DNA from: Patescibacteria group bacterium
Lineage (GTDB): Bacteria > Patescibacteriota > Saccharimonadia > CAILAD01 > JADZBC01
DNA length: 64,000 nucleotides
Reading direction: 5' to 3'
Assembly: GCA_052034495.1 (NCBI GenBank)
Contig: JBPOIL010000003.1
Location: 18,345-82,344, forward strand
The number at the start of each line of letters is the position of its first letter. The first letter of the stretch is position 1. The notes under the pieces are model-generated. The model was given only the letters and a program-made list of their open reading frames with translations, was not told the DNA's origin and searched no databases. This document shows, piece after piece, positions 1 to 54,576 of this stretch. The translations under genes were made by a program, and so were the position numbers.

Positions 1-2595
1 CTGTCCTCCACCCTGCTTCACCTGGGTGCTGTAGGACTTTGGCTCGACACCCTCGATGTTCGGTTTTTGTTGGTTAAAGGTTGGAATATGGGGTTCTGCC
101 TTGGAGTCCGTTGGTTCGTTCGGTTTTTCTTCACCACCACCCATGCCCCACCATTCAGCTACAATACGCTCTACTTCTGCTCGCGGAGAGCTGTAATGTT
201 CATGACTACGGGCAACGATTTCTTTGGTATGGTCATGGGCTGGTTTCGGCATCATGAGGGTTTTGGCCGAGAATGGCATGGAAGTCTCTCCATCAATGCT
301 CATAGTGACGTATATCTGCTGCAAACCAAGGTTCACGAGGTCTAGTGGCTCAAATGCTGGCTCGAAGTACTTGGCCAAGTAGCCTGCATCTTCACTCCCT
401 ACGCGGAAGCTTACCATGGAGCCAACGTTACCGAATACAGCGTCTTTGACCTCATCGGGCATCTGGGCGATATACTGGTTTGCTACGGTTAGATATAAGC
501 CGTACTTACGTGCTTCAGACAGAATGACTGCGAAAGATTCGGTGGCGAAGTTCTGGAATTCGTCTACGTAAAGGTAGAATGGACGTCGATCATCGATGTT
601 TTCAATGTTAGCCCGGCTCATGGCGGCTAGCTGGATTTTGGTAATTAATAGTGCACCTAGGATGCTGGCGTTATCTTCGCCAAGTCGCCCACGCGATAGA
701 TCTACAATCAGGATCTTGCCTTCGTCCATCATCTGGCGGATGTCAAAGCTTGACCGGGTTTGGCCAAGGACGTTACGAATGAGCGGGTTCGCAGTAAAGG
801 CACCAACCTTGTTTAGAACCGGAGCGACTGCTTCGGAGGCGAACTTGTCGTTCCATGCTGCAAATTCGTTCACCCAGAAGGCTCTAACTACCGGGTCTGA
901 CACATTGCTAATGACATATTTACGATATACTTTGTCGGTCAACATACGGGTAATACCTAGCATAGTAGCATCTGGGGTCTCTAAGAGTGCCAAAAGCGTA
1001 AAGCGCAAGATGTGCTCTAAGCGAGGGCCCCATGAGTCGGCGAACATCTTCTTAAGTACGCCCACGATTTCAGAAGCAATGGACGCCCGCATGTTCGGGT
1101 CACTGTTCTCCATCGGGTTGAAGGCAATGGGATGTTCCAGGTCAGCTGGGTTAAAGTACACAACCTGATCCATGCGTTGTTTTGGAACGTGCCTAAGCAT
1201 GTCTTGGGCAAAGTCGCCGTGTGGATCGACTATTGCAAAGCCTTGATTCTGATATATGTCGGATAGTACTAAAAGCTCAAGTAAAAATGACTTACCAGAT
1301 CCACTTTTACCAATAACGTAGAAGTGTCGCTTGCGGTCGGTTCGTTTGATACCGAACTTAATATCGCCCTGACGGAATGTGGTGGTGCCGATGAGGCTCA
1401 GCTCGTTTGATGGAGTGTTGTGGAGGGTTGGTAAATTAGTTGGTGGCTCGCCTACTTTTGTTGATGTCCAAGCAATGTTTGGCGTTTCTACAGAAATATG
1501 TGGTAAGTGGTATAAACTGGCAAGCTCTTCGATGTTTAGGATAAAGCCCGATTCGTGGAAATAGCGCGATTGGTATTCTGCAAAGGCGTCTGGCCCAGTC
1601 TTAATAGGCGCGCTCGAAAAGCCGTTTAGGTTTACCGTATTGAACTGTTTAAATCCGCCCACAAGCGCTTGTACCCGCTGCTTGGCAGCTGCTGTGTTGC
1701 CACCCAGGTAGGCGATGCGGATCTTCACCTCGTAGCCGAGTTTCTGCGCCTTTGTTTCTACTGCGGCATTAATCGTGCTTTGGCCGGTACTCAGTTCCTT
1801 CTTGCCATCTTTTTTCTCCTCTTTTTTAGGAGGTTCGTGCGGGCCTATAAATGCGGCATGAAAGAACGCCCCTATCCACTGGGCTGGGATCATGATGATT
1901 TTTTGCTGCCATCCGTCCATTAACTTGGCTGGCTTACCCTTGGTGATCTCGTCAATGTACTGGATAGAGCGTTTATGCCAACTATCATCAACCGGTCGAA
2001 TTAAGAATTGCAGCCATAGCTCCTCTTGCTGACTGAGCTTGGTTAGAGCAGTCGTGATGCCTGCCAGCGGGTCAACTTCGAAGCTCGGGAAGGTTTTGAT
2101 TGGGAATACGTCGCTTTTGTCCAAGACAACTTCAGCCGTATGGACTTCCCTGCCCTGCAGATCCTTTTGTGCATAGTCATGTGTAATGTCTTGAATCTGT
2201 ACGGTCGGATACTGGGCGTAAACTTGGCTCTCAACGTAATCCTTGAGGTGGCTTGGTACCCAAATATAAAAGTTAATAACGTTTTCTTCGGAAGCAATTT
2301 CGAAGCTAATATGCTCTTGGATTACTTCACCTGAGTCGGTCTCTACAGACGGCCGCAATATCCCATGCAAGCTGGCGAATAGCTGCTCGGCTGAGAGTTC
2401 CTTTTTTTCATTATTCTTCGGAACAATGATCTGTAGAATCGCGTGTTCGGTCTGCTCAACCACCGAGATTATCTTCTTGGTCTTAAGTATCTTCCAGCCT
2501 AAATAAGCGGCAATCAGAACCCAGCCCCAGTACTGGAACAAAACAATGCCGATAAATGAAAAGATAGCACCCAGGGTCGTTGCAAAGATGTCCAT
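1..2595 (-). CDS. Type IV secretion/conjugation coupling ATPase (VirD4/TraG/TraD family). The gene starts at 2595 and its C-terminus runs past the window start.
   Basis: Minus-strand ORF from the ATG at 2593-2595 (MDIFATTLGAIFSF..., N-terminal TM segment) that stays open to position 1. Walker A GKSGSGKS and Walker B hhhhDE (FYLYVDEFQNF) are present in a large P-loop domain typical of T4SS coupling proteins. The + strand ORFs at 596-1168 and 67-345 are antisense junk. The start lies 9 nt after the stop of the upstream gene. Confidence 0.7.
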   Translation of the reverse strand, partial: MDIFATTLGAIFSFIGIVLFQYWGWVLIAAYLGWKILKTKKIISVVEQTEHAILQIIVPKNNEKKELSAEQLFASLHGILRPSVETDSGEVIQEHISFEIASEENVINFYIWVPSHLKDYVESQVYAQYPTVQIQDITHDYAQKDLQGREVHTAEVVLDKSDVFPIKTFPSFEVDPLAGITTALTKLSQQEELWLQFLIRPVDDSWHKRSIQYIDEITKGKPAKLMDGWQQKIIMIPAQWIGAFFHAAFIGPHEPPKKEEKKDGKKELSTGQSTINAAVETKAQKLGYEVKIRIAYLGGNTAAAKQRVQALVGGFKQFNTVNLNGFSSAPIKTGPDAFAEYQSRYFHESGFILNIEELASLYHLPHISVETPNIAWTSTKVGEPPTNLPTLHNTPSNELSLIGTTTFRQGDIKFGIKRTDRKRHFYVIGKSGSGKSFLLELLVLSDIYQNQGFAIVDPHGDFAQDMLRHVPKQRMDQVVYFNPADLEHPIAFNPMENSDPNMRASIASEIVGVLKKMFADSWGPRLEHILRFTLLALLETPDATMLGITRMLTDKVYRKYVISNVSDPVVRAFWVNEFAAWNDKFASEAVAPVLNKVGAFTANPLIRNVLGQTRSSFDIRQMMDEGKILIVDLSRGRLGEDNASILGALLITKIQLAAMSRANIENIDDRRPFYLYVDEFQNFATESFAVILSEARKYGLYLTVANQYIAQMPDEVKDAVFGNVGSMVSFRVGSEDAGYLAKYFEPAFEPLDLVNLGLQQIYVTMSIDGETSMPFSAKTLMMPKPAHDHTKEIVARSHEHYSSPRAEVERIVAEWWGMGGGEEKPNEPTDSKAEPHIPTFNQQKPNIEGVEPKSYSTQVKQGGGQ

Positions 2596-2604
2596 AGACA
2601 GATG

Positions 2605-3633
2605 TTAGGCCTTTTTAAGCTGGTAGGTTGCCTTGGCAACTCGTTCGAACTGCGGTTTTTCCTGCAGATTGAGAGCGATAGTCGTAACTTTGACTTGTCG
2701 ACGCGCGAGAACGCGGCGTACGATTTCGTCTTTTGTTAGAGGCGACTCTTCTTTAAGAATCCCTTCTATGATATCAGCTACCGTACCTGCTTGGTAGCCC
2801 CATTCCGCTAATGCATAAATGCCGCGGCCGATCAGTACAAAGCGTTTATCTTTGATGAGTTCGTTGTGTACAGCTTGGGTAGTTACCTTCTTAGGATTCG
2901 CCTGAACTTGATCTAGTTTCGCAGCGATGTCAGAAAAGTGCATTGGTCGACCGTTCTTTTTGAGTACCAAATAGACTTTATCACGGATACTCTTTGGATT
3001 GACTTCTGGCCAGTGGCTTAAGCCCCAGTTTTCTTCTAGCTCTGCCATCTTGGCAGATGCATGGGCAATTTCCATAAGTGAGTCGGCCTTATGCGGGCCA
3101 TCAATCTTGCCTGCAATACGCTCGAATCTACCTGGCTTACCAAGTTCTTTGGTTGTGCTAAGGATGAGTTGATGTAGCTCTTTTACATCCTCCTCGCTAT
3201 ACACTTCGGCATTCACGACAAGACTATCGAGCAAGTCGTTCTTATCGAGGTAGTAGAACTTCGGGTTGGTACGGATAATAAAACTAAGTTCGGCAGCTAG
3301 TTCCTGGTCAGTTAGGCGACCGACTACTTGTTCAAAGCGAATTACGCCACCCTTTTTGTCGATTATAGCAATAAGTGTGTTCGAGAAATCAGTATTAATC
3401 TCGTTTTCTTGGCGAATACGGGCAAGGGCTGCCTTTTCAATCTGTCGGACGCGCTCACGAGTAATACCAAGCTGCTGGCCAATTTGTTCGAGCGTCTGCG
3501 GTTTATTGCCAAGCACACCGTGGCGCTTCGTCAGAACTTCGCGATCACGATCCTTGCGCAGGACTTCGAGCGAGGCTTCGATCATAGTCCTGAGGTCTTC
3601 TAGGTTGTATTGAATGTTGTTAGTTTTATCCAT
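2605..3633 (-). CDS. Sigma-70 region-4-like HTH protein with a long C-terminal domain that looks winged-helix/HARE-HTH-like. Not a complete sigma factor.
   Basis: The N-terminus (REVLTKRHGVLGNKPQTLEQIGQQLGITRERVRQIEKAALARIR) matches the sigma-70 region 4.2 consensus. Regions 2 and 3 are absent. The C-terminal segment IRDKVYLVLKKNGRPMHFSDIAAKL...RFVLIGRGIYALAEW resembles wHTH/HARE-HTH. Confidence 0.5.
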   Translation of the reverse strand: MDKTNNIQYNLEDLRTMIEASLEVLRKDRDREVLTKRHGVLGNKPQTLEQIGQQLGITRERVRQIEKAALARIRQENEINTDFSNTLIAIIDKKGGVIRFEQVVGRLTDQELAAELSFIIRTNPKFYYLDKNDLLDSLVVNAEVYSEEDVKELHQLILSTTKELGKPGRFERIAGKIDGPHKADSLMEIAHASAKMAELEENWGLSHWPEVNPKSIRDKVYLVLKKNGRPMHFSDIAAKLDQVQANPKKVTTQAVHNELIKDKRFVLIGRGIYALAEWGYQAGTVADIIEGILKEESPLTKDEIVRRVLARRQVKVTTIALNLQEKPQFERVAKATYQLKKA

Positions 3634-3783
3634 AAAAATAAAATCACCCTCACCGTTATAGTTAGGTATGGGCTGCTCAATAAGGAGTCAAGCCTCATAC
3701 GACATAAGCAATTATACTATATGAGCCCTATTAAGTCAACACAAAACATTGTCTAATATTTTGGAGGCAACTGACGCTAACAG

Positions 3784-6087
3784 CTACTTTTTACGGCGCG
3801 GGCGGGCTTTTTTATTGGGGGCTTCGGCAATAATCTGTTTGGCTTGCTCGAGGGTAATGTTTGCTGGGTCTGTATTCTTGGGCGGCTTAGCATTCTTTTT
3901 ACCATCCGTTACATATACCCCGTAGCGACCGTTGATGATGTCGATGCCTTCTTTCTCAAAACGCTGAATATACTTTGCTGCTTCAGCCTTTTGCTTTTCG
4001 ACAATAAGTTCGCGGGCGCGATCTAGGGTTATGTCGAATGGACTCTCGGGCTTAATTGAAACGAAGAGTTTGCCAATCTTTACATACGGACCGAACGGTC
4101 CGATGTTCGCGAGGATTTCTTGGCCATCGCTCGTTTGGCCGACCGTGCGGGGTAGCTTAAACATTTCGAGGGCTTCATCCAACGTAACTTCCTCGAGCCT
4201 CTTGCCTTCAGGCATTGGTGCAAAGGTAGGCTTATTCTCCTTGTCTTCAGTACTGCCCATCTGTAGCATCGGCCCGTATTTACCGAACCGAGCCAGGATT
4301 GGTTTGCCGTTTTTAGGGTGTACACCTATCTCTCGCGCTTGCGCCACGGCAGAACGGTCAATTCCCCCAGATGCCGCAATCAGAGCGTGAAACGGCTTAT
4401 AGAAGTGCGTGAGCATATCATTGCGGGCCAGTTTGCCTTCAGCGATGTCGTCAAATTCCTTCTCGACGTCAGCAGTAAAGCCATAATCAACGACTTTCTC
4501 GAAGTAATCAGTCAGGAAGTCACTAATCAGTTCTCCACTTGGCGTCGGCACGAGTTTGCCCTTGTCGGAGCCGGTCTTTTCTTCAATAACTTCCCGCTCC
4601 AACTTTTTATCTGCCAAATTGAGCACAATCACTTCGCGCGGCGTTCCTTCGCCCTCGCCTTTTATGGCATAACCACGGGCCTGGACGGTGGAAATTATCG
4701 TGGCATAGGTGGATGGTCGGCCAATCCCAAGCTCTTCGAGCTTCTTGACTAAGCTACCTTCGCTGTATCTGGCAGGTGGTCGGGCAAATATTTGCTTGGC
4801 TTGGGCGCTTTGCATCTCGAGCACCTGGTCAGCTTCGAGCGGAGGCAGGATGTCAGGGTCTTTCTTGCTGCCGCCATATACCTTCATAAACCCATCGAAT
4901 ATCACAACTTCACCCTTTGCCTCGAAGCTCTCTTTGCTGCTCGATATAGTAATCACAGCCGTAGTGCGTTCGAGTTCTGCCGGCGCCATCTGACTCGCAA
5001 GTGTACGTCGGCGAATCAAATCGTAGAGCTTTTGGTCGTAAGCGTTTGCACTCGCCTTCTCCGCCCGTACATCTGTGGGACGGATCGCCTCGTGAGCTTC
5101 TTGGGCGCTCGCCGACTTGGTTTTAAACGTGCGCAAATTATGATACTTGTCGCCAAACTCACTCTTTATATAGTTAGTAATTTGGCCAAGTGCTTGCTTG
5201 CTTAGGTTTACCGAATCAGTACGCATGTAGGTAATCTTACCTTCCTGGTAGAGCTTTTGGGCAGCCGACATGGTCGCTTTGGCGCTAAAGCCCAGTCTGC
5301 TATTGGCATCCTGCTGCAAGGTACTGGTAGTGTAGGGCGCTCCAGGGTTGCGTTTGCTCGGGCTGGTCGTAACTTTCGACACGCTAAAGTTGGCATCGAG
5401 CAGGCTCTTTAGGAACGCTTCGGCTTCTGCTTCGCTGGCGAAGCGTTTAGGTAGCTCGGCTTTAAATGCTTGACCGTCATGAATGAATTCAGCAGTAATT
5501 TTAAACTCCGATGAACCTTCGAAGGCTCGGATTTCGCGTTCACGCTCTACAAGTAAACGTACTGCCGGGGACTGCACGCGCCCAGCCGATTTTCCTCCTG
5601 GTACCTTTTGCCACACTACTGGTGAGAGCTCAAAGCCTACTATGCGATCCAGAATCTGCCTGGCCTGCTGGGCTTCTACTAGGCTCATATCGACCGTGCG
5701 AGGCTCTTTTACTGCTTCACTAATGGCGTCTTGGGTGATTTCGTGGAATACAATGCGCTTTGTGTTTTTGGGGTCAAGCCCAAGTACCTCGCACAAATGC
5801 CAGGCAATAGCCTCTCCTTCGCGGTCTTCATCGGTAGCCAGCCAGACGGTATCGGTTGCTTTCACTGCTCGCTTTAGCTCGGTGATCACCTTTTTCTTCT
5901 CAGGATCGACCTCGTAGACTGTCTTAAAACCATTGTCTACATCAATCGTTTTGCTGCCATCCTTAGTCTTTTTGGCAATTGAGCGAATATGGCCAATACT
6001 CGATAATACCTGGAAATCTTTGCCCAGGTACTTTTCTATGGTCTTTGCCTTTGCGGGGCTCTCTACGATAACGAGGTTTTTGCTCAT
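3784..6087 (-). CDS. topA: DNA topoisomerase I
   Basis: The 767-aa product has a TOPRIM N-terminus (MSKNLVIVESPAKAKTIEKYLG) and the topoisomerase IA core; length and order are typical. Confidence 0.9.
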   Translation of the reverse strand: MSKNLVIVESPAKAKTIEKYLGKDFQVLSSIGHIRSIAKKTKDGSKTIDVDNGFKTVYEVDPEKKKVITELKRAVKATDTVWLATDEDREGEAIAWHLCEVLGLDPKNTKRIVFHEITQDAISEAVKEPRTVDMSLVEAQQARQILDRIVGFELSPVVWQKVPGGKSAGRVQSPAVRLLVEREREIRAFEGSSEFKITAEFIHDGQAFKAELPKRFASEAEAEAFLKSLLDANFSVSKVTTSPSKRNPGAPYTTSTLQQDANSRLGFSAKATMSAAQKLYQEGKITYMRTDSVNLSKQALGQITNYIKSEFGDKYHNLRTFKTKSASAQEAHEAIRPTDVRAEKASANAYDQKLYDLIRRRTLASQMAPAELERTTAVITISSSKESFEAKGEVVIFDGFMKVYGGSKKDPDILPPLEADQVLEMQSAQAKQIFARPPARYSEGSLVKKLEELGIGRPSTYATIISTVQARGYAIKGEGEGTPREVIVLNLADKKLEREVIEEKTGSDKGKLVPTPSGELISDFLTDYFEKVVDYGFTADVEKEFDDIAEGKLARNDMLTHFYKPFHALIAASGGIDRSAVAQAREIGVHPKNGKPILARFGKYGPMLQMGSTEDKENKPTFAPMPEGKRLEEVTLDEALEMFKLPRTVGQTSDGQEILANIGPFGPYVKIGKLFVSIKPESPFDITLDRARELIVEKQKAEAAKYIQRFEKEGIDIINGRYGVYVTDGKKNAKPPKNTDPANITLEQAKQIIAEAPNKKARPRRKK

Positions 6088-6227: not shown

Positions 6228-6256
6228 TTGACATTATCTATCAATTATTGTATCAT
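6228..6256 (+). promoter_or_regulatory. Sigma-70-type promoter (TTGACA, 17 nt spacer, TATCAT) upstream of the alpha-CTD-like gene
   Basis: TTGACA at 6228-6233 and TATCAT at 6251-6256 with a 17-nt spacer, about 44 nt upstream of the RBS AGGAGAAG and the ATG at 6300. Confidence 0.35.
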
Positions 6257-6299: not shown

Positions 6300-6845
6300 A
6301 TGGAAGACCGAGATACCAGAATTGCGCGTCAAGCGCACGAAGCTGCCATCCGTTTGGCAGCAGAAGCATTCGTTGCCCTGGCAGCCGGCAAGGTTCCGCC
6401 AAGCTTGGAGTTCTCGGCGGACATCTTGTTCGTCGCCGACCTGGGGCTGAGCGACAAGCCCAGCCGCTTGTTGGCCGAGCAGGGCATCGAACTCGTCGGC
6501 GACCTGGTTCGCCACAGCGAGGACGACCTCCTCGTCATCATCGGCTTTGGGGAGAAGTCGCTCGATGAGGTGAGGGCCAGGCTCGCCGAGCACGAGCTCA
6601 CCCTGAAGGGCTCTGAGCTGCCTGCTCCGACTCCGGTGCAGAACCTGCGCTTCAGTGCTGTTGTGCTTCGGCGCTTCGCCAGGGGAACGTTCAGGCTCGA
6701 CGGTACGTACGTCCCCATCGAGACGGTCGAACAGCTCGTTCGGCTGTGCGCCGATGACCTCCTCACGATCCCCGGTTTCGGCCAGGCCTACCTCAGGCAG
6801 GTCGAACAGGTACTTGCCCGCCACGGCAAGTCCCTGCGCCAGTAG
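6300..6845 (+). CDS. Standalone protein made of two tandem RNA polymerase alpha-subunit C-terminal-domain-like (alpha-CTD) helix-hairpin-helix modules; high-GC islet gene
   Basis: RBS AGGAGAAG precedes the ATG. Both halves (LSDKPSRLLAEQGIELVGDLVRHSEDDLLVIIGFGEKSLDEVRARL and LRFSAVVLRRFARGTFRLDGTYVPIETVEQLVRLCADDLLTIPGFGQAYLRQVEQVL) resemble RpoA CTD (SVRSANCLK...GDLV...ELLK.PNLGKKSL.EI). GC3 is high on the + strand; the overlapping minus ORFs 6234-6824 and 6329-6766 are low-complexity antisense. Confidence 0.55.
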   Translation: MEDRDTRIARQAHEAAIRLAAEAFVALAAGKVPPSLEFSADILFVADLGLSDKPSRLLAEQGIELVGDLVRHSEDDLLVIIGFGEKSLDEVRARLAEHELTLKGSELPAPTPVQNLRFSAVVLRRFARGTFRLDGTYVPIETVEQLVRLCADDLLTIPGFGQAYLRQVEQVLARHGKSLRQ

Positions 6846-6874: not shown

Positions 6875-6904
6875 GATCGCTCCTCCTGGGGCGATCTTTC
6901 GTTT
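6875..6904 (+). terminator. Rho-independent terminator (GATCGC stem, tcctcctgg loop, GCGATC stem, then TTTCGTTT)
   Basis: Hairpin at 6875-6896 followed by a T-rich run, 30 nt after the stop of the 6300-6845 gene. Confidence 0.4.
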
Positions 6905-27543: not shown

Positions 27544-28737
27544 TTAAGTTTGCGAACTATCATTTAACTCACTGAACTTAGCGGCCATTGTGTCATTGTC
27601 TCGGGTGAGCTTCTTGACGGTTAGCTCGTCGGCTTTGTTATTCGCCAAGCGCAAGTTGTCTTCTGATCGCAGCAGGTTCTCTTTGGTCTTTTGGAGCTGC
27701 ACAATCGATTTGTCGATGCTCTCAATGGCGGTTTTGAACTTTTCTGAAGCCAAACGGTAGTTTCTGCCAAATGAATCGCGGAAGTCATTGAGTTGGGCTT
27801 CGAAGTTCGTTACGTCTATGTACTGCGCCTTTACGAGTGCGAGCTCGGACTTATACTGCAGCGAATTCAGCGCGGCGTTACGCAAGAGTGTAATCATCGG
27901 TATGAAGAACTGCGGGCGAATCACGTACATCTTGGGGTGCCGGTGCGAAACGTCTACAATTCCCGTGTTGTAGAGCTCGTTGTCGGCCTCGAGCAGCGAT
28001 ACAAGCACGGCGTACTCACAGCTCTTTTCATTGCGATCCTTATCGAGCTCCCGCAGGAAGTCCTCATTCTTCTTTTTAGTAGCTGTTTCGTCACTCTCGT
28101 TCTTCATCTCGAACATAATCGAGACTATCTCGTTGCCAGCATCATCCGTTTCGCGGTATATATAGTCACCCTTACTTCCGGTACTGGCGTCATTATCTTT
28201 TTCGAAGTAGGCGTTCGGGAATGCAGTTGCTCTGAGCTTATTAAATTCTGTCTCGCAGTGCTGCTCCAGTGTTTCGCCAACCATCTTGGTCGACAGTCGA
28301 GCCTTCATATCTTTATACTGGGCGATTGTCTCGTCTTTTTGCCTAAGTTCAGCCTCGTACTTATCTTTCATAGAGGCCTCTAGGAGTTGCTTCTCGGTGT
28401 CCTTCGAGCTCAGCTTGTGGACTAACTCATCGCGCTCTTTCTCTACTGTCTTTAGTGCCTGGGCGACAGCTAGCTGCTTGGATGTATCAGACAACTCCAG
28501 TTGGGCCTTCACTCGAGCAACTTCGGCGTCTCGCTTACTTATCTCTTCTTGCAGTTCGTTTTTAACCTTAGCTTCTGCGAGCTGCACGGCATTCACCTTT
28601 TCTTTTTCTAGCAGCTCCAGTCGTTCGTGAATCTCTTTTTCAAACTCACTGGTGCGGACTTGCTTTAGGATATCGGCATACCCTGCCTCATCAATAGTGA
28701 ATGACTTTTTACAATGCGGACATATAATTTCGTTCAT
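27544..28737 (-). CDS. Zinc-ribbon plus long coiled-coil protein (DUF2130-like architecture)
   Basis: N-terminal MNEIICPHCKKSFTIDEAGYADILKQVR zinc-ribbon-like opening followed by about 200 aa of heptad-rich E/K/L sequence. Confidence 0.5.
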   Translation of the reverse strand: MNEIICPHCKKSFTIDEAGYADILKQVRTSEFEKEIHERLELLEKEKVNAVQLAEAKVKNELQEEISKRDAEVARVKAQLELSDTSKQLAVAQALKTVEKERDELVHKLSSKDTEKQLLEASMKDKYEAELRQKDETIAQYKDMKARLSTKMVGETLEQHCETEFNKLRATAFPNAYFEKDNDASTGSKGDYIYRETDDAGNEIVSIMFEMKNESDETATKKKNEDFLRELDKDRNEKSCEYAVLVSLLEADNELYNTGIVDVSHRHPKMYVIRPQFFIPMITLLRNAALNSLQYKSELALVKAQYIDVTNFEAQLNDFRDSFGRNYRLASEKFKTAIESIDKSIVQLQKTKENLLRSEDNLRLANNKADELTVKKLTRDNDTMAAKFSELNDSSQT

Positions 28738-33113: not shown

Positions 33114-34007
33114 CTATTCACCTCTGCGGCAGGCCAGCATGTCCTGAATAATGGCGATGGCTTCGTGGTGGCGACGCCTGGCCATATTCCTACCCCAACC
33201 AAGCTCTCGCTCAATTGAGGCGAACTGCTTGCCCTCGAAGTAGTGCAGATCCAAGACCGCCCTTTGGTCCGGACTGAGCCACGCAGCGTCAAGCATGGAG
33301 CTAAGGTGAACGCTACTTGTCATGTCGGGCTCCAGGCCCAGCATGTCCCCAAGCTCAGTACTGCTATCCTCACCAAGCTCTTCGTTGAGTGACGTAGTGT
33401 TCCTCATGACTTGCTGCAGCTCTGCCACTTCGTCGACAGACCAGTCGAGACGATCTGCTATTTCGTCCGGCGTTGGCTCTCGCCCCAGCTTCATCATCAG
33501 CTCATGCGACACCGTTTGCATCGTCTTGATGTCGTTTACCACATGAATAGGTAAACGAATCAAACGAGCCTTGTTGGCTATGGCTCGTTGGACTGCTTGG
33601 CGAATCCACCATGTGGCGTAGGTGCTGAACTTAAAGCCCTTGCGCCAGTCGAACTTCTCAACCGCATGCATCATGCCTAGGTTGCCCTCTTGGATCAGGT
33701 CCATGAGCTCCAGGCCACGATTCGTGTACTTCTTGGCGATCGAGACCACCAAGCGCAAGTTCGCGTTTATGAACGTTCGTTCGGCTCGCTCGCCCCGGCG
33801 CACTAGGCGCTGGAGCTCGCGATAACGATTCGAGTTCTTGTGCGGTGGTTGCGAGGCAAGTTCAGCGGCAGCATTCCTGCCTTCTTCGATTACTTTTGCT
33901 AGCCGTATCTCATCCGCCTTGGTAAGCAACGGGTGTTGGCCAATCTCGGCGAGATATAGCCTCACCAGATCTTCTTCATTGCTGTCGCGTCGCCGATTAG
34001 TAGGCAT
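33114..34007 (-). CDS. RNA polymerase sigma-70 family factor (regions 1.2, 2, 3 and 4; RpoD-like, lacking region 1.1)
   Basis: Region 1.2 LVRLYLAEIGQHPLLTKADE, region 2 DLIQEGNLGMMHAVEKFDWRKGFKFSTYATWWIRQAVQRAIA, plus regions 3 and 4. GC is about 55%, somewhat above the backbone. Confidence 0.8.
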   Translation of the reverse strand: MPTNRRRDSNEEDLVRLYLAEIGQHPLLTKADEIRLAKVIEEGRNAAAELASQPPHKNSNRYRELQRLVRRGERAERTFINANLRLVVSIAKKYTNRGLELMDLIQEGNLGMMHAVEKFDWRKGFKFSTYATWWIRQAVQRAIANKARLIRLPIHVVNDIKTMQTVSHELMMKLGREPTPDEIADRLDWSVDEVAELQQVMRNTTSLNEELGEDSSTELGDMLGLEPDMTSSVHLSSMLDAAWLSPDQRAVLDLHYFEGKQFASIERELGWGRNMARRRHHEAIAIIQDMLACRRGE

Positions 34008-38459: not shown

Positions 38460-39995
38460 CTACCAATCTAGGTCCAACTGCACTGGTTTGCCGACTATGC
38501 TGTCTTCAGTCACGAGCTTTTGCAAAAAGTTGTAAATTTCTACCATGGCCAGAGTGTCGAGCTCGCAATATTTGTCGAGCCCGGCCAAAATACTTTTCTT
38601 CTGATCTTCCCGCTTACCTTCCAGGATTGATTCCATCCACAGTCGTTGAGCTGCGCCACCCTCCTGAATATCAAGTTCCTTGTAGCTTAGGCTTGGGACT
38701 AATGCCGGCATAACCTTCTTAATACTTGCGCTCCCGCCGAATGCAGCATCGACGTACCAGCCTTTGCTAAAAGGTATCATGAGGTCCATAATGCGGCTGT
38801 TGAGCTGTTTGTAGAACTCGGCGTATTCTGGAACCAACTCGCCAAGCGTTGTGTTGCACGACTTTTCGAACGCCATATACCACGTTAACACCGACCCCTT
38901 ATCCCCTACCTGTGACTTTAGCGCGCGACTAAGTTCCTCGGCGGGGTTAGAATTTGCGGCATGCAAATAGCCACTGTGGCGTAGCTCGCCGCCTGGGTGG
39001 TCAATGACGTGCAGTGAATACTGGAATGGATACTGCGCGTACGGCCGCATGCCGTCAAAGTACGGCACCACGCTCGAGAGCGTTTCGTAGTCAAAAAAGT
39101 AGAGCGGATACACTAGGCTATTTAGGAAGTTGCTGATTTTATCCTTCTGGACAATAGGCTTACCGCTGCGCACCACCTCGAGCTGCAGCTTCTGCTTGTC
39201 GTTCTGAATGATATCGAGGGGAATGTTTTTGAGCTCAGTAATGCCTTCTTCCTCGAGTACGCCGATCAAGCTTGGATCAATGCGAGTAAGTTCGTATATG
39301 CTACCATCTTCAACTTTCGTAAGACCACGGTAGATATCCATCCATTCCTTCAGGCAGCCCAACCTGCAGCGAGCCGGCGAAGGGTCTGGCATGGTTGGCT
39401 GACTTACGACTTGCAAGGCTGATTTAATATCACGTTCTGTTTGGGCAAGACGCATCTTGACCGCGTGCGTTACGTCGGTTGTTGCCGTTAGCTTGGCTGG
39501 ATCGATCTCGCCATTTCGAACGTAGTCGGTATTAACGTGGACCACGGCTACATTCCGAACCTGCCAGCCGCATTGCTGCAAAACGTATACTTGAAATGCG
39601 AGGTCTAGTTCGTGATCTAGCTTTGCTTTGGTACTGGATTTTATTTCGGTTAGATCTACGAGCTTGTCGCCGACTACTTGCAATACGTCGCATATAAAGG
39701 TTACTTGGCCGTGTTCGAATCTGCCTTGGAAAATGGTTTTTGCACCATCGGCCAGCGCTTTCTCGGTTCGTGCGGGCAAACTTAAGTATTCTTGGTAGTC
39801 ATTAAAGCCGAGTCGAACGCCGTCCGGGAATAACTTTTCGGTATAAACCTCGAAGGCGTTCCCAGCATCAAACATGGCTTGCAGGTTATCGTCGGGCGGC
39901 GGGAGCTTGGACTTATCATGCTTTTTGAGCCACAACCAGGTGGGATGCTTCAAGAACATCATGTACTCGGACTTAGAGATAACCAACTGTGTCAT
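38460..39995 (-). CDS. DUF2779-like predicted nuclease (RecB-like N-terminal region plus DEDD-like C-terminal region)
   Basis: 511 aa; the C-terminal block YFFDYETLSSVVPYFDGMRPYAQYPFQYSLHV resembles the DUF2779 exonuclease-like core. Confidence 0.55.
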   Translation of the reverse strand: MTQLVISKSEYMMFLKHPTWLWLKKHDKSKLPPPDDNLQAMFDAGNAFEVYTEKLFPDGVRLGFNDYQEYLSLPARTEKALADGAKTIFQGRFEHGQVTFICDVLQVVGDKLVDLTEIKSSTKAKLDHELDLAFQVYVLQQCGWQVRNVAVVHVNTDYVRNGEIDPAKLTATTDVTHAVKMRLAQTERDIKSALQVVSQPTMPDPSPARCRLGCLKEWMDIYRGLTKVEDGSIYELTRIDPSLIGVLEEEGITELKNIPLDIIQNDKQKLQLEVVRSGKPIVQKDKISNFLNSLVYPLYFFDYETLSSVVPYFDGMRPYAQYPFQYSLHVIDHPGGELRHSGYLHAANSNPAEELSRALKSQVGDKGSVLTWYMAFEKSCNTTLGELVPEYAEFYKQLNSRIMDLMIPFSKGWYVDAAFGGSASIKKVMPALVPSLSYKELDIQEGGAAQRLWMESILEGKREDQKKSILAGLDKYCELDTLAMVEIYNFLQKLVTEDSIVGKPVQLDLDW

Positions 39996-50188: not shown

Positions 50189-51400
50189 GTGCTAAAGGTT
50201 ACCCCTATGCCAAAAGACCCAAAGAGAAAAATAGATACCCCTAAAGACTCCTTGCAGGCAGGCAAAAAGCCAGTCGTCGTCGTCGGGCCGAAAGCGCCAA
50301 AAGCAGACATCGTCATCGACGAAGCGGAGTCGAAGAGTAAGCAGAAGTTCCTTACTAAGCGCAAGGTAGTAATTGCACTTGGAATTCTTGTCGCACTACT
50401 TGTCGTGGCAGCTACTGCCTGGGCTTTGCTCTCTCGCCCCGAAGCACCCACTAAACAGAGGGCGGTTAGCAAAACACTAAGGACGCCTCCGAAACCAAAA
50501 ACTGCGCCAAGTCCTCTGACTGGAGTCGAAGTGCCGCCTGAGCTTGCTGATAATCCAGTAGTTTCGGTGGTAATCGAAAACCTCTATCCAAGCGCAAGAC
50601 CTCAGTCTGGGCTTTCGTCTGCGGGGATCGTTTATGAAGCACTCGCCGAAGGGGGCATAACCAGGTACCAAGCATTCTTTGGCGATACTATGCCGCTAGA
50701 TGTAGGCCCTGTGCGTAGTTTGCGTACATTCTTTGTGCGCTGGGGCCTTGAGTATGACGCCCCCGTGGTGCACGCGGGCGGGAACATCGATGCACTCGAC
50801 TTGATTAGGCCGCTCGGCATGAAGGATCTAGATCAGTTTGCAAATGGTGGCTACTTTCGTCGTATACCTACGCGCTATGCACCACACAACCTATACACAA
50901 CTGGCGCACAGCTTGAAAAGCTTATGCAGGCTAGAAGTTATTATTCCGAGCCTACATTTGCACCGTGGCTACGTAAGGGTGACAAAAAGGTTGCGGCACC
51001 AACGGCATCGAGCATTACAATTGATCCCTCGTATCCAGATTATAGAGTAACCTATTCGTATGACCCGGCAAGCAATAGCTACACTCGCTCCATACGAGGA
51101 GTGGCAGACATTGATGCTAGTGGCAATGTGCAGATAAAGCCCAAGAATGTTGTAGTCCTGAAGGCAGCCACTACTTATGGGACTACGAGAGCAAATACTC
51201 AGGCAGTATATACCCAGACGGTCGGCAGCGGCTCGGGAGTGATATTTATGGATGGCCAGGCTACCGAAATAACTTGGCGCAAGCCGAGTGACAAAGCTCG
51301 TACCCAATTCTATGATGCCGCTGGCAAAGAAGTTGCCCTAAATCGTGGCCAAACTTGGGTCACGGTTATTCCTCTGGAGAAAAGTGTAAGTTATAAGTAG
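50189..51400 (+). CDS. DUF3048-like (YerB-type) membrane-anchored extracytoplasmic protein
   Basis: N-terminal TM anchor followed by SVVIENLYPSARPQSGLSSAGIVYEALAEGGITRYQAFF, characteristic of DUF3048. Confidence 0.55.
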   Translation: MLKVTPMPKDPKRKIDTPKDSLQAGKKPVVVVGPKAPKADIVIDEAESKSKQKFLTKRKVVIALGILVALLVVAATAWALLSRPEAPTKQRAVSKTLRTPPKPKTAPSPLTGVEVPPELADNPVVSVVIENLYPSARPQSGLSSAGIVYEALAEGGITRYQAFFGDTMPLDVGPVRSLRTFFVRWGLEYDAPVVHAGGNIDALDLIRPLGMKDLDQFANGGYFRRIPTRYAPHNLYTTGAQLEKLMQARSYYSEPTFAPWLRKGDKKVAAPTASSITIDPSYPDYRVTYSYDPASNSYTRSIRGVADIDASGNVQIKPKNVVVLKAATTYGTTRANTQAVYTQTVGSGSGVIFMDGQATEITWRKPSDKARTQFYDAAGKEVALNRGQTWVTVIPLEKSVSYK

Positions 51401-52894: not shown

Positions 52895-53227
52895 CTAGTG
52901 CAAGAGATCTTCGGGCGATACTTCGACGGGGGTTTCCCCGTCCATGCGGTAGAAAATTACCTTGTGAGTAAGCTCGCTGGCATCATAGAGCACATGCGAA
53001 CTGGTTGCAACTCCAGTTTTGTTATAGGTAGTCTTCTTATCCACAATTGCTGGCGAGCTAATTCGCTCGATGCGGTAAGGCTGCCCACCACGCACAAAGT
53101 CTACGCGGTCGACTGTACTCCTGAGCTCGCGCTCCCCCTCAATTGCTTCCTCGAACTTGCGAGAGTGAGTAATGCCAAAATTAACGTCTATTCGATCAAT
53201 CAGGTCCTCCCAGGCTCGATCGCTCAT
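52895..53227 (-). CDS. Hypothetical protein (110 aa)
   Basis: ORF overlapping the upstream gene stop by 4 nt. Confidence 0.4.
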   Translation of the reverse strand: MSDRAWEDLIDRIDVNFGITHSRKFEEAIEGERELRSTVDRVDFVRGGQPYRIERISSPAIVDKKTTYNKTGVATSSHVLYDASELTHKVIFYRMDGETPVEVSPEDLLH

Positions 53228-54576
53228 AGGCTCGTGGCTAGCTTGATGACCTGATCCTGGCTTAAGCCATGATCGCTACCCTCGATACGATACCACGTAC
53301 CATTGTTCACCCAGCTAGCCTGATTGCCGTCATATAGGTAGATGGTAAGCCCCTGGGCTTGAAGGGCGAGGTAATTGTCTGATTTTGGAGCTACGTAGTT
53401 TTCAGCCAAGGCCTGTGAATCCCAACTCGTCTTCGATTCACTAACCTGGACGGCCTTGTCGCTCTTGGTATTGGAGATGTTGTAGCTAATATTCCCAGGA
53501 GAAGACTGAATATTACCGCTAAGCTTCCACCCGCTCGGTATGTATCCGGGGAAATTAGCGCTAATACCGGCTTTACTGCCCGCTACCTTTAGTGCGAGGT
53601 TTGGATAATTAACCTGCCATACATAGCCGCCAAGCAAAAGAAGGCCAACGAGGCTGAGCGCCACGCTACTCGCCTTTAGGCCTTTACCCGATTGTGTGGC
53701 TGGAGCAGGAGCTGCCTGACTGGTGGCATCCATAACAGAGGCTACTGCGGGCTGTGCTGGCGCAGCCTGGGCTGGTGCTGGGCTAGGCAATGGCTGGGCA
53801 GTAGGAGTCTGGCTGGGTACCGCAGATGTAGCGGGCATAGAGACAGGAGCTGCGGTAGGTATAGCCGCTGCAACCGTGCTTGGTGGTACTGGGGCGGGAG
53901 CTTGGGCAACGGGGGCGGGTTGTGCCCCGGGGCGAATGTCGCTAACTGCCTTCGGTAGCTTTGCCGATGAGGTCTGTGTTAGGTCTAGCTTGTAACTTGA
54001 CTGTTTTGGTGCCGCGGGCTCATCTTCAGGAGGGACTGTGGGCATTACTAGGTCCGAAGATGTATTCGCTAGTGCGTCAAGCGTTTCGTCGCTCATTACG
54101 GATTCACCTACTTTATCGTTCAGGGATCCCATTTCACTGTTAGACTTGTCTTCAGGTAATTCTGCCGACGCACTCGTGTCTTCGGAGCTAAACTTGGCAA
54201 TGCTCGGGCTTGATTGAGTGGATAGTGCGCTGTCCAGCTGGTCGGCCTTTAAGCGAGTCTGTACGGTGTCTTGAGCTGCTGTCGACTCCGAGCCGACTGT
54301 AGTCTGCGCTAAGCCGGGCATTTTATCTGCCAATTGTGCACTTACTGTAGGCATTTGAACAGAAGATATGTCAGAGGTAGCATGTGGTGCCACAGAGAGG
54401 CTCGGCGCCGGCGTAGATGATTGCTGAACCGATGGGTCGGCCTGCGCTGCTGACTGGGGTGTTCCGCAGTTCGCACAGAATGTCTTTCCGGCAATACTAA
54501 TTGTGTCCTGCTCGCTGCAGTTTGTACAATTTTGCGTAGTATTTCCTGTCTGATTCACACTGTCACCCTCACCCAT
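53224..54576 (-). CDS. Zinc-ribbon, disordered linker, single-TM, extracytoplasmic-domain protein (anti-sigma-factor-like topology)
   Basis: N-terminal CTNCSEQDTISIAGKTFCANCG, long S/A/P/Q-rich linker, TM ASSVALSLVGLLLLGGYVW and a C-terminal ~130-aa domain. Confidence 0.5.
   Translation of the reverse strand: MGEGDSVNQTGNTTQNCTNCSEQDTISIAGKTFCANCGTPQSAAQADPSVQQSSTPAPSLSVAPHATSDISSVQMPTVSAQLADKMPGLAQTTVGSESTAAQDTVQTRLKADQLDSALSTQSSPSIAKFSSEDTSASAELPEDKSNSEMGSLNDKVGESVMSDETLDALANTSSDLVMPTVPPEDEPAAPKQSSYKLDLTQTSSAKLPKAVSDIRPGAQPAPVAQAPAPVPPSTVAAAIPTAAPVSMPATSAVPSQTPTAQPLPSPAPAQAAPAQPAVASVMDATSQAAPAPATQSGKGLKASSVALSLVGLLLLGGYVWQVNYPNLALKVAGSKAGISANFPGYIPSGWKLSGNIQSSPGNISYNISNTKSDKAVQVSESKTSWDSQALAENYVAPKSDNYLALQAQGLTIYLYDGNQASWVNNGTWYRIEGSDHGLSQDQVIKLATSL

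Follow-up and report, generated by a model that had tools for sequence, protein, structure and literature searches.

Counterparts of the two genes analysed here are found in Southlakia epibionticum ML1, a cultured relative in which gene essentiality has been scored by transposon sequencing (Tn-seq; Wang et al. 2023, Tables S1 and S2; PMC10633639). The two genes lie at the start of a 64,000-nucleotide (nt) stretch, hereafter the window, from a Patescibacteria group bacterium of the Saccharimonadia (assembly GCA_052034495.1, contig JBPOIL010000003.1, positions 18,345 to 82,344). The first codes for a 342-amino acid (aa) protein with a sigma-70 region 4 domain (sigma4) followed by four winged helices, named here the sigma4-winged-helix protein. 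The second codes for an ATPase that resembles type IV coupling proteins (T4CPs). An earlier reading of the window sequence, here the original prediction, suggested that the first gene encodes a DNA-binding or relaxosome-like accessory factor or regulator, and that the pair is a substrate-recruitment module, of a type IV secretion system (T4SS) or DNA-transfer apparatus. The reading that we prefer, and to which we give roughly even credence, is that the pair is a vertically inherited operon of the Saccharimonadia core genome, neither a piece of a T4SS locus nor a mobile element, which joins an essential factor to an accessory, DNA-motor-like ATPase.

In S. epibionticum, SEML1_0294 codes for a 349-aa protein with matches to Sigma70_r4 (aa 27-72) and HARE-HTH (aa 225-283), which structure-based parsing divides into one tri-helical and three winged domains (PMC10633639). 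SEML1_0293, directly 3′ of it, codes for a 921-aa protein with a PF10412 match at aa 402-719; topA (SEML1_0296) and dprA (SEML1_0298) lie upstream, in the order dprA-topA-x-0294-0293 (PMC10633639). Both SEML1_0293 and SEML1_0294 belong to core families that are enriched in Patescibacteria. SEML1_0294 was essential (ES) at T0, T1 and T2 and is one of the 61 genes of class I, among which genetic information processing is over-represented, and SEML1_0293 was non-essential (NE), its normalised reads falling from 5817 to 2940 and then 1372 with those of its neighbours flat or rising (PMC10633639). The T4SS of this organism is encoded by SEML1_0006-0019, beside dnaA; of its 14 genes, 12 belong to class II of the essential genes, SEML1_0011 belongs to class I and SEML1_0012 is dispensable, and the authors found no recognisable coupling protein or relaxase for it (PMC10633639). 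By our measure, this T4SS lies ∼260 kb from the SEML1_0293/SEML1_0294 pair. The organism also has a complete RpoD (SEML1_0063) and a true FtsK (SEML1_0096), both of them essential, and the main text of the paper discusses neither SEML1_0293 nor SEML1_0294 (PMC10633639).

For Patescibacteria at large, the T4CP discussion of Quinonero-Coronel et al. 2025 reports 5,713 VirD4-type homologues in 2,918 genomes, 148 of them near virB4, relates the T4SS of Patescibacteria to the MPF-FATA class, and raises exaptation for the orphan VirD4s, the S. epibionticum copy being dispensable (PMC12102498). The window ATPase is one of these orphan VirD4-like T4CPs, as is SEML1_0293, the S. epibionticum copy, which it matches in family, in the position of the Pfam match and in synteny. 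That discussion does not mention an operon with a sigma4-winged-helix gene, DUF8128 homology or a change in the ATPase tail (PMC12102498).

Results

Conservation of the gene pair

The sigma4-winged-helix gene, detected as an open reading frame (ORF) and by Pfam, occupies positions 2605..3633 on the minus strand. A 9-nt spacer (CATCTGTCT; 2596..2604, minus) runs from its TAA stop to the ATG at 2595 of the ATPase gene (1..2595, minus), which is open to base 1 and has the first 865 of its 900 codons in the window. The gene order in S. epibionticum is the same as in the window, with topA within one gene of SEML1_0294 and dprA three genes upstream; in the window dprA is on the same strand two genes upstream. 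The PF10412 match spans aa 402-719 in SEML1_0293 and aa 419-714 in the window ATPase. From this architecture and synteny we infer that SEML1_0294 is the ortholog of the 342-aa protein.

Conservation was followed in 80 loci from a scan of one genome per GTDB species, together with two loci (L001 and L002) near-identical to the window, by tblastn, ORF calling, clustering of the neighbouring families and a neighbour-joining tree of the sigma4-winged-helix protein. Direct same-strand adjacency was found in 25 of the 39 loci of the Saccharimonadia clade (L001 and L002 included; some show the first ATPase codons at a contig end). Adjacency recurs, far beyond chance, in 23 more species-level genomes, with proteins that are 41-62% identical. 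Of the 43 loci in the other classes, L059 and L063 alone have the two genes adjacent. The co-occurrence that the original prediction proposed to look for across related genomes was thus found, and it is centred on the Saccharimonadia. The ATPase is more conserved than its partner (47-69% versus 36-62% identity).

One or two genes are inserted between the pair in two Saccharimonadia loci. In a derived subclade of 11 closely related metagenome-assembled genomes (MAGs; L029, L033, L035-L038, L040, L041, L044, L046 and L049), and in L064, the available sequence contains no ATPase gene. In this subclade dnaE lies 5′ of the sigma4-winged-helix gene, and uvrA lies 3′ of it in the 8 MAGs with long enough contigs. 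The 3′ order there is a gene for a DUF4143 AAA ATPase or a small ORF, a 184-aa gene of unknown function, and uvrA.

The gap between the two genes was measured in 21 other loci, and ranged from -41 to 114 nt in 20 of them (mostly 40-90 nt) and was 2.3 kb in one. The 9-nt spacing is specific to this genome. Hence the close spacing from which translational coupling had been proposed is real here, but coupling was rejected as a conserved trait.

The order dprA-(x)-topA-[pair], followed by a convergent cluster that begins with ftsQ, recurs in 10-15 Saccharimonadia loci, and topA is in the corresponding place in 12 related loci (L003-L012, L020 and L032). This conserved neighbourhood argues for vertical inheritance of a chromosomal segment, and the adjacency of the two genes is ancestral in Saccharimonadia.

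Outside the Saccharimonadia the sigma4-winged-helix gene has other neighbours, mainly dnaE (23 loci, in two arrangements) and a HIT-family gene (16 loci). In Peribacteria it is two genes from recA and three from dnaB, and elsewhere uvrA, nadA/nadC and glmS were observed. Families of DNA replication, recombination and repair account for ∼8 of the 29 neighbouring families over five arrangement types; these categories were chosen post hoc, so the apparent enrichment is a lead only.

Breadth of the sigma4-winged-helix family

The 342-aa protein has at least 8,000 homologous 90%-identity clusters, and among the matches listed 120 clusters are 54-98% identical to it over the full length. With aa 86-342 as the query, which leaves out the sigma module, an exhaustive search found 1,540 50%-identity clusters with E ≤ 1e-3, of which 457 reach E ≤ 1e-30. 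Almost all of them are 330-400 aa long, and the match begins at about residue 90; the architecture of the family is fixed. The hosts include Saccharibacteria, Peregrinibacteria, Peribacteria, Gracilibacteria, Abawacabacteria and Nomurabacteria. The family is found almost only in Patescibacteria and is Patescibacteria-wide, and its distribution is far wider than its linkage to the ATPase.

Homologues have been misnamed: some sources call them ‘RNAP delta subunit’, and SEML1_0294 was named ‘RpoS’ by Prokka. In literature searches on HARE-HTH and sigma in Patescibacteria and on RpoS in Saccharibacteria, we came across no paper that deals with the protein or the operon. Three Peribacteria loci (L034, L056 and L067) carry two paralogous sigma4-winged-helix genes within 6 kb (∼1400-1550 and 5935-5953). 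The paralogues fall in different clades of the protein tree, and a DUF8128-type ATPase gene lies 3-4.5 kb away on the opposite strand.

Domains and structure of the sigma4-winged-helix protein

The sigma-70 region 4 domain lies at aa 11-75 (3409..3603, minus) and contains the recognition helix ITRERVRQIEKAAL. Sigma70_r4 matched aa 28-75 (E 1.8e-14; 53.4 bits against a Pfam cut-off of 24.1), and HARE-HTH (PF05066) matched aa 220-278 (E 1.6e-9; 38.4 bits against 25.9). No Sigma70_r2, r3 or r1_2 match was obtained in the 342-aa protein with Pfam or NCBIfam, and in the NCBIfam sigma models only the last 60-70 model positions align to it, far below cut-off. In an AlphaFold2 (AF2) model with a pLDDT of 85, sigma4 is followed by winged-helix-like units at ∼aa 81-141, 147-197, 216-275 and 285-339. 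The third of these is the HARE-HTH winged helix (aa 216-278; 2800..2988, minus; Pfam and AF2), with helices at aa 216-227, 233-240 and 252-261 and strands at aa 265-269 and 272-275. The fourth (aa 285-339; 2617..2781, minus; AF2) coincides with a second, weaker HARE-HTH stretch and a DUF3320-like match.

A sequence profile search of the PDB with the 342-aa protein returned matches to sigma region 4 only, the best being RpoS (1.3e-15). Foldseek against the PDB was likewise confident for sigma region 4 alone (SigA, RpoS and RpoD), over ∼60 residues at 35-46% identity, with an rmsd of 1-2.6 Å for most entries. Residues T58-K67 (TRERVRQIEK) were invariant across 23 diverse sequences, and the recognition helix motif TRER[VI]RQ near the N-terminus was kept in 112 of the 115 full-length representatives of 50%-identity clusters. 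The HARE-HTH is the most conserved block of the family, and the pattern RQVK..TI.LNLQEK.QF is invariant in the fourth winged helix.

The helix TRERVRQIEKAAL of the 342-aa protein is nearly identical to that of E. coli sigma-70 (TRERIRQIEAKAL), and the domain is of the kind found as region 4 in primary (group 1 and 2) sigmas. In E. coli sigma-70 the residues of this helix, TRERIRQIEAK, contact the -35 element. The protein differs from primary sigmas in that region 4 is N-terminal, four winged helices come after it, and regions 1.2, 2 and 3 are missing. With no region 2 or 3 it cannot bind core RNA polymerase (RNAP) as a sigma does or melt the -10 region, and so it cannot be a sigma factor. Since the invariant sigma-4.2 helix is the -35-reading surface in sigmas, DNA recognition or docking on the beta-flap would be the most economical role for it. 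Half of a split sigma was also considered and rejected: a complete and essential RpoD is present in S. epibionticum, and the window itself encodes a complete sigma (34007..33114, minus).

The HARE-HTH is shared with the RNAP delta subunit (RpoE) of Firmicutes, and TIGR04567 (RNAP_delt_lowGC) aligns at aa 215-278 (E 1.4e-7). Identity with delta was rejected: the TIGR04567 score, 31.6 bits, stays under the cut-off of 42, the HARE-HTH lies inside the protein rather than at its N-terminus, and the acidic disordered tail of delta is absent, the 342-aa protein ending in the fourth winged helix. Some of its homologues carry a short basic C-terminal tail (RRTRGGRKPAK). Moreover, delta is dispensable in Bacillus, whereas the protein of the SEML1_0294 kind is essential. 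The original prediction had named a housekeeping factor such as delta, unlinked to T4SS genes, as the alternative to its own view; the protein is not delta, but it is housekeeping-like, and no linkage to T4SS structural genes was seen.

Consecutive winged helices are also found in TFIIE, Pol III C82/C34, Dcc1, UFL1-DDRGK1 and the SelB C-terminus, a likeness at the level of the fold only. The corresponding matches were weak (Foldseek E 1e-3 to 3e-2 with rmsd >12 Å; TFIIE_beta in Pfam, E 0.03), and with no significant sequence relationship they reflect a repeated fold, not homology. A ribbon-helix-helix fold of the TraM, TrwA, PcfF or Aux1/2 type was not found in the AF2 model, which contains helix-turn-helix and winged-helix units only, or among the PDB and Foldseek matches. 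A degenerate relaxase was rejected as well, the hhalign probability against the Bacillus Replic_Relax protein encoded beside a plasmid T4CP being 0.6%.

The ATPase and its relatives on plasmids

The full-length ATPase, read from the identical contig L001, has 900 aa. It begins with a hydrophobic helix (aa 1-48; 2452..2595, minus; seen in the sequence and as AF2 helix 2-48) followed by KILKTKK. G24 and W25 in the middle of this helix are invariant in 21 homologues. The helix is probably a single membrane anchor; the N-terminal membrane domain of VirD4 and TrwB has two helices. An alpha/beta domain of the DUF8128 family follows (∼aa 50-400; 1396..2448, minus; precomputed PF26449 assignment, present in every listed homologue), and then the P-loop nucleotide-binding domain (∼aa 400-815; 151..1398, minus; Pfam, PDB phmmer and Foldseek).

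The nucleotide-binding domain has the features of the VirD4/TrwB/TraD kind, namely an FtsK/HerA-type P-loop with Walker A and B motifs and an all-alpha insertion, located here at ∼aa 500-610, which is all-helical in the AF2 model. In the alignment of 21 homologues, G429, G432, G434 and K435 of Walker A (GKSGSGKS, aa 429-436; 1288..1311, minus) and all seven residues of Walker B (YLYVDEF, aa 674-680; 556..576, minus) are invariant. The Pfam matches were weak and above the gathering scores: TrwB_AAD_bind (1.8e-9; aa 419-714, 37.4 bits against 20.5), DUF87 (2.3e-8) and T4SS-DNA_transf (4.3e-7). The NCBIfam equivalogs TraD, CD1115 and CedD stayed far below cut-off (50.5 versus 366 bits for SXT_TraD; 44.4 versus 250 for CD1115). 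TrwB of plasmid R388 is the best solved relative by sequence (PDB phmmer, E 3.3e-4), and Foldseek superposed the ATPase on the whole TrwB soluble fragment (target-normalised TM 0.63-0.65, ∼415 columns). VirB4 and HerA also match by Foldseek, VirB4 over >900 columns but with an rmsd of 15 Å. Homologues fall into 6,943 90%-identity clusters, and identity across the aligned Saccharimonadia homologues is 57-85%.

A tblastn search of PLSDB with the ATPase matched 618 plasmids (329 from Bacillus, 120 from Streptomyces and 27 from Staphylococcus, plus haloarchaea and Sulfolobus), and in 14 plasmid records a single match covered ≥80% of the query. BLASTP aligned aa 93-800 with a Bacillus subtilis plasmid protein at 24% identity (E 4e-50), an alignment that spans both DUF8128 and the ATPase domain. 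The plasmid relatives (B. subtilis, Shouchella clausii and others) are ∼885-aa proteins annotated as ‘DUF87 domain-containing protein’. Their gene lies directly 5′ of a replication-relaxation family gene, after which come conjugal-transfer, TcpD/TcpE and VirB4-like genes. Given the collinear homology over aa 93-800 and this plasmid context, the window ATPase is a true relative of the monoderm-plasmid coupling protein, and the kinship to T4CPs seen in the original prediction stands. It also agrees with the MPF-FATA relation of Patescibacteria T4SSs described in the T4CP discussion of PMC12102498. On two Bacillus-group plasmids, 0.65-1.4 kb 5′ of the T4CP-like gene (L167, 2113-3558; L168, 6199-6848) have no annotated gene and no ORF >95 aa; this stretch could contain an origin of transfer.

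The Saccharimonadia ATPase departs from its plasmid and archaeal relatives in several respects. It is a chromosomal core gene, and none of the relaxase, VirB4 and Tcp genes that neighbour plasmid T4CPs adjoins it. The Bacillus plasmid protein lacks the N-terminal anchor helix and has a long acidic tail, whereas the tail of the window ATPase (its C-terminal 35 codons, L001 5836-5941) is basic, Gly/Arg-rich and of low complexity, ending in GGQRSSGGHGGGKGRSGGGGRPRR. Beyond the window start, this low-complexity C-terminus reads GGQQNRSRGSGNNNGGQRSSGGHGGGKGRSGGGGRPRR.

The locus and its context

Upstream of the pair lies topA (6087..3784, minus), which codes for a 767-aa type IA topoisomerase (Pfam Topoisom_bac, 7e-117, Toprim and three C-terminal repeats). 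A promoter-like site, TTGACT-17-TATAAT (3711..3739, minus), is placed inside the 150-nt gap between topA and the 342-aa ORF, ∼75 nt 5′ of the latter. With 11 of 12 matches to the sigma-70-type consensus it is a predicted near-consensus promoter. The spacer between the two genes has no strong Shine-Dalgarno sequence; an AAGG lies 14 nt 5′ of the ATPase ATG. Thus topA upstream, the 342-aa ORF, the 9-nt spacer and the ATPase ORF are all as originally described, and so is the domain reading of both proteins, with Sigma70_r4 and HARE-HTH above the Pfam cut-offs in the one and a TrwB/VirD4-like ATPase with Walker A GKSGSGKS in the other.

Logan contig L001 is 100% identical to window positions 1-5833 and continues for 7.4 kb past the window start. 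The 3′ neighbours of the ATPase gene on it are the convergent ftsQ, murG, ftsW, mraY, ftsI and rsmH. A role as an FtsK substitute beside this division cluster was rejected, as was the split sigma for the first gene, since S. epibionticum has its own essential FtsK and RpoD.

A Pfam scan of the 41 larger ORFs of the window matched housekeeping genes: dprA, pth, ribonucleotide reductase, gltX, mreB, murA, scpA, tRNA synthetases, a two-component kinase, glycosyltransferases and metK. The der and scpB genes were identified from ORF translation and the Pfam annotation of a near-identical contig. Neither the 41 scanned ORFs nor the 7.4 kb beyond the window, where the original prediction had proposed to look for VirB4/VirB6-type genes, yielded a VirB4, VirB6, relaxase or other T4SS gene. 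A mobile-element or phage origin of the pair was rejected: its GC content of 0.47-0.49 is slightly below the window mean of 0.515, and its neighbourhood is a conserved housekeeping one. In IMG/VR there was no relative of the ATPase, and a full-length relative of the sigma4-winged-helix protein was found on one contig only (L087), the other viral matches being to sigma region 4 alone. On this contig (IMGVR_UViG_3300035698_007438) the relative lies at 5001-5894, is 32% identical over aa 28-340 and has no ATPase relative nearby; the contig may come from a phage of Patescibacteria or from a prophage, or may have been misclassified. Membership of a defence system was rejected too, the PADLOC matches being generic (MzaA via sigma4 only; mad8, HerA and DndH via the P-loop only).

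The complete sigma-70 family factor of the window has 297 aa with regions 1.2, 2, 3 and 4, so that the statement that a complete sigma is absent holds for the locus but not for the window. The GC content around it is 0.55-0.58, above that of the window, and the Pfam fit of its region 4 (E 3e-5) is far weaker than that of the 342-aa protein.

Between topA and dprA, at 6300-6845 on the plus strand, lies a gene for a stand-alone 181-aa protein with two helix-hairpin-helix units that resemble the RNAP alpha C-terminal domain (alpha-CTD; RNA_pol_A_CTD, E 2e-16 in two stretches, and HHH_5). It is a second detached promoter-recognition module of RNAP, at a distance of 2.7 kb from the gene with sigma4 only. 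At 0.63 its GC content exceeds the 0.515 of the window, and the gene has a near-consensus promoter of its own at 6228-6256 and a terminator-like hairpin at 6875-6896. Among 5.8 billion proteins a single homologous cluster (98% identical) was found, and the gene is absent at the equivalent position in other Saccharimonadia loci. Four conserved window proteins are of unknown function: those encoded at 27544-28737 (minus; DUF2130, E 1e-90), 38460-39995 (minus; DUF2779), 50189-51400 (plus; DUF3048, N- and C-terminal domains) and 53224-54576 (minus; a 450-aa ORF without Pfam match).

Discussion

We propose that the sigma4-winged-helix protein is a general chromosomal factor. Its sigma4 module would dock on -35-like DNA, on the beta-flap of RNAP or on both, and the winged helices would make further DNA or protein contacts. 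The pair is probably co-transcribed from the promoter downstream of topA. The ATPase is a domesticated descendant of the coupling ATPase of monoderm and archaeal conjugative plasmids that gained a probable anchor helix, has a basic Gly/Arg tail in place of the acidic one and lost its relaxase neighbour; it may act as an accessory enzyme of the DNA-motor type with the sigma4-winged-helix protein as its DNA-binding partner. Since SEML1_0294 is essential and SEML1_0293 dispensable, the essential role of the sigma4-winged-helix protein does not run through the ATPase, and its class I essentiality agrees with a basal role in information processing. A physical partnership is nevertheless plausible, given that plasmid T4CPs adjoin DNA-processing partners and that the pair is stable in Saccharimonadia.

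Several points weigh against this proposal. The orthology with SEML1_0294, by which the essentiality data are carried over, is putative and drawn from architecture and gene order. The replication and repair neighbours in other classes fit a role in those processes at least as well as one in transcription. Binding of DNA or RNAP by the sigma4 module is predicted from its sequence, and the interaction of the two proteins from their gene order. The AF2 model of the ATPase is of moderate confidence (pLDDT 72), low to moderate at aa 50-360 with the P-loop domain (aa 400-815) well predicted, and the DUF8128 region alone gave no match in the Pfam library without PF26449. A tblastn search with Bacillus plasmid VirB4 and relaxase queries, which are distant and of low sensitivity, gave no match in the window or in 86 related loci. 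Finally, an operon with a T4CP homologue mirrors the plasmid T4CP beside its DNA-processing partner, and by this analogy a T4SS-linked role is possible.

Such a role, in which the sigma4-winged-helix protein is a dedicated DNA-binding accessory factor, adaptor or regulator and the ATPase delivers substrate to a T4SS encoded elsewhere, seems to us unlikely. The ATPase is indeed a T4CP homologue, the pair is co-oriented across Saccharimonadia, both families are, like several T4SS genes, part of the Patescibacteria-enriched core, and an essential regulator of essential T4SS or type IV pilus genes would be essential too. Yet SEML1_0293 is non-essential and the T4SS is essential, and SEML1_0294 is class I like RpoD, DnaG and TopA whereas the T4SS genes are mostly class II. 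No T4SS or relaxase gene was found near the pair here or in 80 related loci, and the first gene is Patescibacteria-wide, mostly unlinked to the ATPase and found beside dnaE, recA, uvrA and dnaB. The protein has neither a ribbon-helix-helix fold nor relaxase similarity. These results do not support the relaxosome-like recruitment module of the original prediction. We also weighed the possibility, rather improbable in our view, that the genes have no functional link: the first would encode an accessory subunit of RNAP, a counterpart of delta with sigma4 on the beta-flap and HARE-HTH on beta-prime, and the ATPase gene would have been fixed alongside in the Saccharimonadia ancestor. The N-terminal domain of delta has the HARE-HTH fold, as the TIGR04567 alignment and the ‘delta’ names reflect, and class I essentiality would suit such a subunit. 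Adjacency is missing in other classes and was lost in one Saccharimonadia subclade that kept the first gene, and the intergenic gaps, 40-114 nt in most loci, are wide enough for separate promoters. However, same-strand adjacency that persists to 41% identity and recurs in L059 and L063 is more than drift usually keeps in genomes as rearranged as these, the TIGR04567 score and the lack of an acidic tail speak against a delta counterpart, and a sigma4 module placed on the beta-flap would be in competition with the sigma of the cell.

We find it highly improbable that the pair forms a module of DNA uptake and recombination, with the ATPase in the role of ComFA as a motor through ComEC, together with DprA and RecA, and the sigma4-winged-helix protein on incoming or recombining DNA. 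This proposal comes from gene context: dprA is two genes upstream here and three in S. epibionticum, and recA, dnaB, uvrA and dnaE are neighbours in other classes. In addition, Saccharibacteria are naturally competent via type IV pili and ComEC, ‘ComFA’ does not appear in the S. epibionticum annotation tables, and the ATPase is non-essential, as is comEC. Reads of comEC mutants were not depleted, however, whereas those of ATPase mutants fell ∼4-fold over two passages, and the essentiality of the first gene is at odds with a competence that is dispensable (PMC12857230). Within the reading of an essential factor and an accessory ATPase, a more specific form can be put forward, which we hold to be decidedly unlikely: a Patescibacteria-specific general factor that would read -35 DNA or hold the beta-flap without a sigma and that, in Saccharimonadia, would also be the DNA-binding partner of an ATPase tethering or feeding chromosomal DNA at the membrane.

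Part of this is already known: both families have been tabulated in supplements, and published work has remarked on the orphan T4CP. The following appear to be new: the conserved operon of the sigma4-winged-helix gene and the ATPase gene, the full-length homology of the ATPase, its DUF8128 domain included, to plasmid T4CPs encoded beside relaxases, the switch of its tail from acidic to basic, and the recognition that a protein misannotated as ‘RpoS’ or ‘delta’ is an essential, lineage-wide protein of sigma4 and four winged helices.

A large part of bacterial diversity belongs to the Patescibacteria, a group in which many essential genes lack an assigned function. SEML1_0294 is one such gene, and in the one species open to genetics no more than 61 genes were, like it, scored as essential from the first Tn-seq time point. 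Its product keeps the promoter-reading module of a sigma intact and has no other part of one, and its targets could reveal a lineage-specific layer of transcription or of chromosome biology. The orphan VirD4 of these bacteria also becomes clearer: a full-length relative of the plasmid T4CPs of Gram-positive bacteria and archaea, it is now encoded in the chromosomal core, with an altered tail and beside a new gene with which it forms a stable pair, and fewer hypotheses are left on how, or whether, it serves the essential T4SS of Patescibacteria. Should the more specific form of our proposal be true, the factor would add an essential component to basal transcription, or to the coordination of transcription with replication, across a quarter of bacterial diversity. 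The main value of the finding is a sharply defined essential gene in a tractable Patescibacterium.

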